Positions 3,001 through 6,000 of a stretch of 17,614 nucleotides of DNA are shown piece after piece. Position 1 is the stretch's first letter, and each line of letters starts with the position of its first letter. The position numbers were made by a program. Location: the IMG/VR virus record IMGVR_UViG_2558860274_000012, positions 1-17,614 of that record; one strand, given 5' to 3'. This stretch comes from a virus (lineage: Duplodnaviria > Heunggongvirae > Uroviricota > Caudoviricetes).

Positions 3001-6000
3001 ATTTCCACTTTGCATTCGGTTTTTTCGTTGTCCGGAATTGCCGTTTCCACTGCATCAGTTTCTGGTACTGGCGACGAGAGAGTATCAGTTGTGCTCTGAT
3101 TTGTTCCTTCATCTTCAAACACGCCCTTTGTAGTCAGGTATTCAGTAATGTATTTGTTCAGTGCCACAGGGTCTTTGTGAATGTCGATCGGACGTTCACG
3201 GACAAGGCCAAAAATAGTCTGGCGGTCGTAGCGAAGGGCATCAGGCTGTTTGCGCATTGATGCCGAGATACGCTTCCAGTCTTCGCGGTCGTTGTCGATA
3301 ACTTCTTTTTTTGCCCAGCGATGGATGCTGCCGTCAATGTTTCCGGCATCCACATCACCAGGCCAGAGAGCGTAGGCCAGTTCGTCATCCAGTGTTTTCC
3401 ATGTCTGCTTGTATTCGCGATGAATGGCAGCAATGACCGGGCTGATTTTTTCTGTTGAATTTTCAGTGTACTGTTGATTGGCTCTGGCGCGGGCGAGATC
3501 AACAACAGACGTGTATTTTCCGGTTTCCTTGCGTTCACCTTCGCGACGTTTTTTCCAGATGCGCATCTCTGCCTGAATTTCGGGCCATTTAGCACCAGGA
3601 ATACATTTATGCTTAACCCACCCAATGGCGTGCAACTTAAGCTCCGGATAACATTGGCCCCGGTAAGTGTTTCCCGTCGACGTTTTATAAGCGGCTGAAT
3701 GCCGGTGATCGTAAGGGCGCATGCGAGGCGATTCGCTGGTGGATAAAAGATGGTGGGCGCGATTGCCGCATACGTTCAAATAACTGCTATGGACAGGTTA
3801 TTCGTCGTGACCAGGAAAGCGCATTAGCCTGTTGGGGGATAGATCAGTGAGCAGAGTCGCCGCGATTATTTATGCTCTGGTTATTTGCATGATCGTCTGC
3901 CTGTCGTGGGCGGTCAATCATTACCGTGATAACGCCATCGCCTACAAAGAACAGCGTGATAAAAAAGTCAGTGAGCTGAAGCAGGCGATCGCCACCATCA
4001 CTGACATGCAGCAGCGTCAGCGTGATGTTGCTGCGCTCGATGCAAAGTACTCGAGAGAATTAGCCAATGCGAAAGCTGAAAATGAAACTCTGCGCGCTGA
4101 TGTTGCCGCTGGTCGTCGTCGGTTGCACATCAAAGCAGTCTGTCAGTCAGTGCGTGAAGCCACCACCGCCTCCGGCGTGGATAATGCAACCAGCCCCCGA
4201 CTGGCAGACACCGCTGAACGGGATTATTTCACCCTCAGAGAGCGACTGATAATAATGCAAAAACAACTTGAAGGGGCACAGCTATACATTCGAGAGCAAT
4301 GCCTCAGATAAAAACCGGCCAAGGATAATCCGCTGAAGATTCGCCGGGGCTAGAGAGAGCCAAAGCTTTAATTGACACCATTACTCATAGCAAGGCAATG
4401 TATCGTTTTTATGAGGTCAATAGATGCCTGATTTATTTCTGTGCTCCGTATCGTCGCTGTATTCCTTCGTTAACCATGAGTGTAGTCCGACGGGGAGCAC
4501 GAGTGTATGGGAATAATAAAAAACGATACACACCTGGGTTTACCGCTTTTATGCTTCGCGGGTTTGCTCTTCATGCAGCTAGTCCGGTACAGAGGTGTAT
4601 GAAACCGGACTGCTGATTTAATTAATTCCTATATTAATGGTCTGTTATTTTCAACATCTTCCATGTACAAAAGATCGTGATCAAACGAATAGTAAAACCG
4701 TATGTTTTTATCTATATCTGTAATCCAGCGATAAACACCTGCTTTTGCTAAAGTGAGACGATATTGATGAAATGTAGATTTACCTGATATAAGATTTCTG
4801 GCTGCTTCTTTAATTAACTCTGGTTTTTTTGATGTGCTAACTTTCACAAGTCCTCTACTGCCTCGAACTAATAAAATATTATCATCATGAGTAATTAGTC
4901 TTATATTATCAGTAGCCAGATAATAAATATAATGCGCAATATTATGGCGTTTTAATTCGGAGTAAAACCATGGGAAGTATAAATTACTTCTAACGTGTTC
5001 GAATATCTCTTGAAAAATATCTGCCTGCTCCATCAGGAAATATCCTCTTGTCACTGCTACTTCTTACCATGAGCTTAGATAGTTTGCATGATTTGTTCTC
5101 TCACATCAATCTGATCCGACCTCATTGAGGTGGGCGTTGTGAATACCTGATAAGAAATGTGGGTCCTCCCAATGGGGGAGGCTGGCACGGGGCGGGAGCG
5201 TCGCGGAAAAAGGCTAGTTTTTGCATTTTTATCGGCCATCATCATCTTTACATCTTATTGATTATTAATGGTTATTTGTTTTTTGTATGTCGAATTGAGT
5301 GTTTTTTGTTCGACATCGAACGCGTTTTCTTAAAGTTGTTCGCACGATGCATGTTTAAAGCTCTCCGGAGGAAATATGGATCATGAGTTGAAAAAACTGG
5401 TGCTGAATATTAATCAACTGGCGGCTTTATCTGGTCTGCACCGCCAGACTGTCGTGGCAAGACTGAAAAACATTCGTCCCGCTGGTGGACATGACAAACT
5501 CAAGCTATACCGGTTGACCGATATTCTGACTGAATTTATGGGGTTACCACCGCCGGTTGCTGAGGGCGAAATGGATCCACATGAACGCAAAGCCTGGTAT
5601 CAGTCTGAACGTGAGCGTCTTAAGTTCGAACAGGAAACGGCACAACTCATTCCGGCCAGTGATGTCAGACGGGAGTTTGCCATCTGGGCAAAAGCGGTCG
5701 TGCAGGTGCTGGAGACATTACCGGATATTCTGGAACGTGACTGTGGTCTGCAGCCTGCCGCTGTGAGCCGTGTTCAGTCCATTATTGATGATCTGCGCGA
5801 TCAGATAGCCCTGCGGGTGACCGAAGCAGGTGCGGATGATGAGGAGGAATTACAGCAGGAGGAGTAATGCTGAATCAGGAAACCGCAAAGGCAGCACGAA
5901 CCGATTCAGGTTATATCCTTCGCGCACCGAGACGAATGCGGGTTGCTGATGCCGTTGCTCAGTATATGCGGGTGCCCATGGGGGCAGGGAACTCAGTCCC

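Follow-up and report, generated by a model that had tools for sequence, protein, structure and literature searches.

How does a prophage exonuclease gene come to run antisense into the tail of an endolysin gene? The question is raised by a 17,614-nucleotide stretch of tailed-phage DNA (IMG/VR record IMGVR_UViG_2558860274_000012, positions 1 to 17,614; hereafter the window), in which a minus-strand exonuclease reading frame overlaps the 3' end of a plus-strand, lysozyme-type endolysin gene, with the spanin genes Rz and Rz1 directly behind it. An initial annotation of the window had placed a deletion junction in this region, and that observation is confirmed: the three bases ATA at window positions 3648–3650 are a deletion junction within an Escherichia coli lambdoid prophage. 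Most probably the junction is the scar of one illegitimate (RecA-independent) deletion of ~13.84 kb inside a prophage at the Qin site, between rspB and ydfJ. The features that meet there are as follows (window coordinates; aa, amino acids; SAR, signal-anchor-release).

3648..3650, no strand: deletion breakpoint, a 3-bp microhomology (ATA) present in both parents (three-way alignment; blastn overlap 3648–3658)
1659..3650, minus strand: 5'-truncated prophage 3'–5' exonuclease, residues 164–826 of 826 aa (Pfam Rv2179c-like; tblastn)
3651..3779, minus strand: junction-created 43-codon 5' extension of the exonuclease frame, antisense to the endolysin remnant (translation compared with the intact protein)
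3650..3850, plus strand: 3' remnant of the endolysin gene (R, SAR/T4-lysozyme type), residues 112–177 and stop (Pfam, tblastn, comparison with the intact protein)
3847..4311, plus strand: Rz (i-spanin), full length, 154 aa (Pfam Phage_lysis, E = 2.6e-49, profile positions 1–125 of 126)
4067..4249, plus strand: Rz1 (o-spanin lipoprotein), 60 aa, in the +1 frame of Rz (Pfam Rz1, E = 1.2e-19)

The breakpoint was located by aligning the window simultaneously to the intact exonuclease gene and to an intact endolysin gene, that of phage PhiR47_1. At the junction the window reads TCCGGATA followed by ACATTGG, a combination of the exonuclease parent (TCCGGATA followed by CATGG) and the endolysin parent (TCCCTATA followed by ACATTGG). 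The ATA sits inside a short tract of patchy similarity between the two parents, TCCGGATA in the exonuclease and TCCCTATA in the endolysin. In the longer alignment rows, the exonuclease reads AGCTCCGGATA and then CATGGCG, the endolysin reads TTTGTCCCTATA and then ACATTGGCC, and the window reads AGCTCCGGATAACATTGGCC. On the minus strand the ATA is read as the TAT codon of exonuclease residue Y164; on the plus strand it straddles codons 111/112 of the endolysin gene. The initial annotation had proposed alignment to an intact related prophage, and it was this that mapped the endpoints. The comparator is an apparently intact ~44-kb prophage of E. coli Z1323HEC0477 (NZ_CP148323.1, about 2151.8–2196.3 kb), lying between rspB and ydfJ. 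By blastn, window 1–3658 aligns to positions 2196342–2192687 of this record with 99.6% identity and window 3648–3962 to positions 2178854–2178540 with 97.5% identity; the ~13.84 kb missing at the junction is measured in these comparator coordinates. Among 5,426 complete E. coli genomes, the match to lysozyme genes starts at window 3643–3648. Similarity to exonuclease genes enters from the left and ends by 3658 at the latest, and phage records split in the same way. Both flanks continue uninterrupted into their parental sequences. No insertion sequence (IS) end, inverted repeat or filler DNA was found at the junction by alignment and repeat search, which returned only short repeats at chance level.

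To the right of the breakpoint, the open frame at 3641–3850, which ends in a TGA (3848–3850), matches the Phage_lysozyme profile (PF00959) at positions 77–125 of 125 only (E = 3.4e-7). By tblastn this frame has 97–98.5% protein identity to residues 110–177 of intact 177-aa lysozymes, and DNA identity is 97.5–98% from window 3648 onward. The frame had initially been read as the C-terminus of a lysozyme-type endolysin, which these matches bear out, although the ~70 endolysin codons first counted come down to 66 (residues 112–177) when the breakpoint is taken into account; the codons at 3641–3649 (A-P-D) derive from the junction and the exonuclease side. Upstream, a TAA at 3638–3640 shuts the frame, which has no start codon and in which no open reading frame (ORF) of at least 40 aa is listed. 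An intact 177-aa homologue carries EGNHTTAYRDGSGIWT at residues 35–50 and a hydrophobic N-terminus. The pattern Glu-8aa-Asp-5aa-Thr (E35/D44/T50) we take to be the catalytic triad of R21-type SAR endolysins and to define the family. The remnant has neither the SAR segment nor E35-D44-T50, and tblastn found no match to lysozyme residues 1–109 in the window. The remnant is a gene fragment of the SAR-type phage lysozyme family and not a member protein.

The two spanin genes behind the remnant are complete, as the initial annotation had it. The GTG start of Rz at 3847 overlaps the endolysin stop as GTGA, an overlap found in identical form in phage PhiR47_1, and the full-length Rz product carries a hydrophobic stretch at its N-terminus. 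The translation of the embedded Rz1 gene contains a signal peptide and the lipobox VVGC. Rz and Rz1 stand without their usual companions: Q, the holin and the catalytic part of the endolysin are not in the window and sit in the comparator's deleted segment. From 3962 to 5160 the window (the 3' half of Rz and its surroundings) is a mosaic late-region patch unlike the comparator, which matches other lambdoid phages, PhiR47_1 at ~98%; a DUF1398 (YdfO-like) gene lies inside this patch on the minus strand (4629–5054).

To the left of the breakpoint, tblastn aligns residues 164–826 of the intact exonuclease, encoded in the comparator by a gene of 2,481 bp (826 aa), to window 3650–1662 with 99.4% protein identity. 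The retained part differs from this intact relative by four synonymous and four nonsynonymous changes, with no frameshift and no stop; these differences are too few to separate relaxed from purifying selection. The Rv2179c-like DEDDh domain (PF16473), which occupies residues 642–814 of the intact protein, is kept at residues 522–694 of the window ORF (Pfam, E = 1.1e-67). This ORF (1659–3779) has 706 codons, of which 663 are exonuclease codons and 43 form its 5' end. No exonuclease homology was found beyond 3650 by tblastn, by alignment or by comparison with exonuclease genes, and the intact protein carries an unrelated N-terminus of 163 residues. The full-length native exonuclease is not present in the window, its residues 1–163 being gone and 43 unrelated codons standing in their place; the ORF is chimeric and its 5' extension is an artefact. 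The initial annotation had suspected such an artefact in the first ~46 codons, and had expected that homologous exonucleases would not share the N-terminus encoded there. Both points hold, with the count corrected to 43 codons (3779–3651) and with the intact 826-aa homologue showing a different 163-aa N-terminus. What it did not notice is that the exonuclease gene proper is also cut short, its first 163 codons and, presumably, its promoter being gone.

Four in-frame candidate starts are available to the truncated gene (TTG 3779, ATG 3722, TTG 3635 and ATG 3566), and none of the four is preceded by a clear Shine-Dalgarno sequence. A single public gene call is on record, for a 635-aa product from ATG 3566 in one assembly; exact-protein look-ups of the 687-aa (ATG 3722) and 706-aa (TTG 3779) forms gave no match. 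The only nuclease domain that Pfam detected is of the DEDDh 3'–5' type, with none of the YqaJ/PD-(D/E)XK or RecE type. Neither an annealase nor Gam is annotated between exonuclease and repressor in the intact comparator, where ydfD, dicB, ydfB and ydfA are found. A recombination module of the lambda Red or RecET type was rejected on these two counts, and the label 'recombination module' used in the initial annotation falls with it; the name 'Exodeoxyribonuclease VIII' in some phage records is annotation only and not the outcome of tests. The exonuclease is of the YdfE type and belongs to a dicBF-type early-left operon.

What the deletion removed was read from the comparator's annotation. On the exonuclease side, the missing segment holds the first 163 exonuclease codons, ydfD (lysis protein), dicB and then ydfB/ydfA; in the middle, a repressor/cro pair, ydaT, O/P-like replication genes, paa, hokD, a DUF968 gene, rusA and the Q antiterminator; and on the lysis side, a class II holin, ydfR and endolysin codons 1–111, with the hydrophobic N-terminus and E35-D44-T50. 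A tblastn search found no match anywhere in the window to the holin, YdfR, Q, cro, the repressor, DicB, endolysin residues 1–109 or exonuclease residues 1–163. The absence of a holin and of the endolysin N-terminus had been seen initially, as had the loss of immunity, replication, Q and holin from between the exonuclease and R. The bet/gam genes counted with them do not belong in that list, none being annotated in the intact comparator. One clean breakpoint pair with nothing between its two sides is consistent with a single deletion of ~13.84 kb. The earlier claim of one large internal deletion can thus be kept for this junction, but not for the whole element, which has suffered at least five.

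In Qin, the dicBF operon (ydfA, B, C, dicF, dicB, ydfD, ydfE) is transcribed from dicBp, which lies upstream of ydfA and just downstream of dicA (PMC10448788). By the comparator's annotation, the region equivalent to dicBp falls inside the deleted segment, and the truncated exonuclease would therefore have lost its native transcription. Rz and Rz1 would have lost the Q-dependent late promoter, located between Q and the holin. With the early-left and late promoters both presumably lost, the truncated exonuclease and Rz/Rz1 are most likely silent relics. A promoter/terminator scan lent no support to a new promoter, promoter-like sites near the junction not being enriched (6, against 4.0 ± 1.8 in shuffles), and an Rfam scan of the whole window gave no match. 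The open exonuclease frame is no argument for function, because 99.4% protein identity to the intact relative leaves little time for decay. The deletion would have made the prophage non-inducible, removing every known host-killing function of this phage type (DicB, YdfD, HokD, holin and endolysin) together with the induction switch. Such disarming plausibly offers a selective reason for fixation, the effector cargo being kept.

The left end of the element carries its site-specific recombination genes.

23..1318, minus strand: prophage integrase, intact, 431 aa (Pfam Arm-DNA-bind_2 and Phage_integrase; 99.6% DNA identity to the Z1323HEC0477 integrase)
1338..1589, minus strand: excisionase, 83 aa (Pfam DUF1233 putative excisionase, E = 1.6e-31; collinear with the comparator)

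The chromosomal position was obtained from a second public assembly. Sequence AASOXM010000001.1 (assembly GCA_012466545.1) has the same junction 30-mer, CTTAAGCTCCGGATAACATTGGCCCCGGTA, and differs from the window by two mismatches over 12,489 bp. Directly past the integrase it continues into rspB, rspA, ynfA, ynfB and further host genes, which fixes the Qin site as the locus. On the other side, window 14147–15589 matches comparator sequence running into ydfJ. Because both ends of the element lie at one chromosomal site, an internal deletion explains the junction much more economically than would the joining of two prophages. No record among the 5,426 complete E. coli genomes spans 3648–3650 or any of the other four junctions described below, and no intermediate form was found there. 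The two best partial matches, PT62 and EC27, were considered and set aside as intermediates, both being independent rearrangements with IS elements. An exact search with the junction 30-mer found no match in GTDB species-representative genomes or in IMG/VR viral contigs, from which we draw no conclusion on wider distribution. The assemblies that carry the junction form a single clone-like pair.

Relative to the comparator, at least five internal deletions flanked by microhomology can be counted, that at 3648–3650 included, in addition to which there are insertions of an IS2-like and an IS66-family element. The other four deletion junctions are:

6818/6819: 1.3 kb deleted, inside TerL/portal
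7166: 5.6 kb deleted, from portal to gpG
7408–7415: 3.9 kb deleted, from gpG to gpL
8859–8863: 6.1 kb deleted, from gpI to the tail-fibre end

The microhomologies at the five junctions are 3, 2, 1, 4 and 2 bp, and a sum of at least 12 bp has a probability of 0.002–0.009 under random joining. Together the five deletions take immunity, replication, Q, the holin, the nuclease half of TerL, the segment from portal to tail tube, the tape measure and the segment from J to the tail fibres. The element is a defective (cryptic) lambdoid prophage, with host genes at both ends and its essential modules gone.

Several products of these rearrangements can be recognised in the late region. TerL is truncated after its ATPase domain (5867–6838) by the 6818/6819 junction. 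The ORF at 6838–7425 is a chimera made by the 7166 junction, in which the portal N-terminus is fused to the tail assembly chaperone gpG. Between the junctions at 7408–7415 and 8859–8863 an island survives that contains minor tail protein L (7410–8039) and a gpK-like JAB/NlpC-P60 peptidase (8002–8787).

Effector genes follow towards the right end. A gene of the NleG family (U-box E3 ligase effectors) at 9169–9759 lies in a 635-bp segment (9139–9773) that is not in the otherwise collinear comparator. Next, at 9809–12181, comes an intact gene whose 790-aa product is a SopA/NleL-like effector, a HECT-type E3 ubiquitin ligase containing pentapeptide repeats; its DNA is 95% identical to that of the comparator copy. 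The nleC gene, which encodes a zinc protease (Peptidase_M85) that degrades NF-kB p65, is split into 12435–12815 and 14147–14757 by the IS2-like element, 1,331 bp long (12816–14146), with transposase ORFs at 13690–14100 and 12827–13732 on the minus strand. At nleC, two comparator alignments overlap by 5 bp, indicating a 5-bp target duplication by this element. At its right end the window contains the IS66-family element (~15590–17614; TnpC 15620–17233 and TnpB 17264–17614, minus strand), which starts where comparator homology ends, ~86 bp into the ydfJ remnant beside the right end of the prophage.

The proposed deletion would have proceeded as follows. A break would have brought together, at the ATA, codon 164 of the minus-strand exonuclease gene of the early-left operon and codon 111/112 of the plus-strand endolysin gene of the late operon, by replication slippage or by end joining at short homology; we infer RecA independence from the shortness of the homology alone. 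The deletion would then have become fixed as the prophage was disarmed, no longer inducible and no longer killing its host, and the type III secretion system (T3SS) effector cargo (NleG, the NleL/SopA-like E3 ligase and the IS-split nleC) would stay locked in the chromosome. We attribute the junction to illegitimate recombination at short homology because neither IS, repeat nor filler DNA is present there and because the microhomology of the five junctions taken together exceeds that of random joining. An IS-mediated deletion at 3648–3650 was rejected, there being no IS remnant at the junction, and a product of site-specific recombination was likewise considered and rejected.

Four points weigh against this account. 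The 3-bp microhomology of the lone junction is weak, with P about 0.05–0.08. The end product alone cannot separate a single event from nested successive deletions. The exact length and content of the deletion are estimates, because the comparator is a close relative and not the actual parent, and because Rz past 3962 is mosaic relative to it. Finally, we infer the silence of the relics, and the exonuclease frame is still open.

The alternative that survives best is an origin in several steps, by two or more nested deletions or by an adjacent deletion mediated by an IS that was later lost. Repeated events did occur in this prophage, as the four other deletions and two IS insertions testify, and in other strains the same exonuclease gene was truncated through IS1 or IS2. 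The junction itself nevertheless has no IS remnant, filler or additional scar, its flanks run on without interruption, and the complete E. coli genomes yielded no intermediate, so that we regard a stepwise origin as unlikely.

Recombination between prophages would also give a join of this kind, the arm with int, xis and exonuclease and the arm from the endolysin 3' end through Rz onward having come from two lambdoid prophages joined illegitimately. The two arms do differ in their relation to the comparator, with 99.6% identity on the left and 97.5% on the right before the right arm diverges, and from the 3' end of Rz to 5160 the sequence is nearer to other phages such as PhiR47_1 (98%); moreover, lambdoid prophages of E. 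coli recombine often (PMC2669165). Against this, the genes stand in precisely the order and orientation that one prophage would have, the outer ends lie at one chromosomal site (rspB on the left, ydfJ-proximal on the right), and the cargo (the gene for the HECT E3 ligase, then nleC) is that of the intact comparator at the Qin site. A mosaic lysis region is nothing out of the ordinary in lambdoid phages and may be older than the deletion. We find this origin very improbable, and prefer the internal deletion.

Selection might instead have acted on the fusion itself, retaining a chimeric or internally initiated exonuclease (706, 687, 658 or 635 aa) as a domesticated nuclease, or Rz/Rz1 for an envelope function, or both. 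In its favour, the exonuclease frame is open over 663 codons with the catalytic domain intact, Rz and Rz1 are full length, and a gene caller reported the 635-aa product from ATG 3566. These features must be set against the deletion of the native promoters without any excess of promoter-like sites, the lack of a convincing ribosome-binding site at every candidate start, a near-identity to the intact relative by which recency alone explains the open frame, and the restriction of the junction to one clone-like pair of assemblies. A functional fusion thus appears very doubtful. Its most explicit form has even less to recommend it: the truncated exonuclease would be alive, translated from an internal start (e.g. 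ATG 3566, 635 aa) or as a chimera of 687/706 aa, with its transcript crossing the Rz/endolysin relic in antisense; freed from prophage repression, it would serve the host as a co-opted, stand-alone DEDDh nuclease, and Rz/Rz1 would be kept for a role in the envelope or in vesicles.

A chimeric join of two contigs during assembly is hardly credible, for although prophage repeats often misassemble and the junction is in no complete E. coli genome, a second public assembly carries the identical junction with two mismatches over 12.5 kb, and a 3-bp overlap provides no repeat long enough to mislead an assembler.

Taking the junction as a deletion scar has consequences for annotation. The ORF at 1659–3779 should be recorded as a 5'-truncated exonuclease pseudogene, and not as a protein of 706 or 635 aa, and 3650–3850 as an endolysin pseudogene fragment. 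The exact sequence of the junction also provides strain typing with a clone-specific marker. The element is a further example of a lambdoid prophage with T3SS effectors that was disarmed and locked in the chromosome by short-homology deletions while its cargo was retained. The junction raises no new mechanistic question and is an instance without unusual property.

Among the closest known systems is the Z1323HEC0477 prophage, to which all retained segments are 94–99.6% identical and with which the window shares the order int-xis-exonuclease, endolysin-Rz, terminase, tail and HECT E3 ligase-nleC. Unlike the window, that prophage has the full 826-aa exonuclease gene, the 13.84-kb early, regulatory and lysis segment and complete head and tail genes, and it has neither the NleG gene nor the IS elements. 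The cryptic prophage Qin of E. coli K-12 (ydfJ-rspB) is alike in attachment site, phage type, decay and possession of a broken copy of the same exonuclease gene. The K-12 gene ydfE is the 5' part of that gene and overlaps window 3373–3658 with 99% identity. Qin thus keeps the 5' part, cut by IS2E, whereas the window keeps the 3' part and its cut is a clean microhomology join and not an IS. Most structural genes are gone from Qin, where the dicBF operon, the dicA/dicC switch, Q and a complete lysis cassette (essQ-ydfR-rrrQ-rzpQ/rzoQ) are still present; it is precisely this retained region that is missing from the window.

Lambdoid prophages of E. coli are typically defective through deletions and IS insertions, and those among Sp1–Sp18 of enterohaemorrhagic E. 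coli O157 Sakai carry both, and frameshifts as well (PMC2669165). The window element resembles these as an effector-carrying lambdoid prophage with multiple defects (PMC2669165). Many Sakai prophages remain inducible or complementable, whereas autonomous induction of the window element is not plausible because immunity, replication, Q, the holin, most head genes and most tail genes are absent. The Qin-site remnant of pigeon E. coli PT62 (NZ_CP090448.1) is similar in having an N-terminally truncated exonuclease beside the late/lysis region, with immunity, replication and Q gone. It differs in its breakpoint, formed by IS1, in the length of exonuclease gene left (just 438 bp, from the 3' end) and in having a complete holin-ydfR-endolysin-Rz cassette. 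In PT62 (L006, 4526–5804) the 438 bp of exonuclease abut IS1 and a fragment of a cold-shock gene, after which comes the complete essD-ydfR-rrrQ-rzpQ cassette. PT62 represents an independent decay of the same type of Qin-site prophage, and the same exonuclease gene was broken independently in K-12 Qin as well. The phenomenon is already known and is standard E. coli prophage decay, from which the window differs only in its endpoints and in its clean short-homology join.

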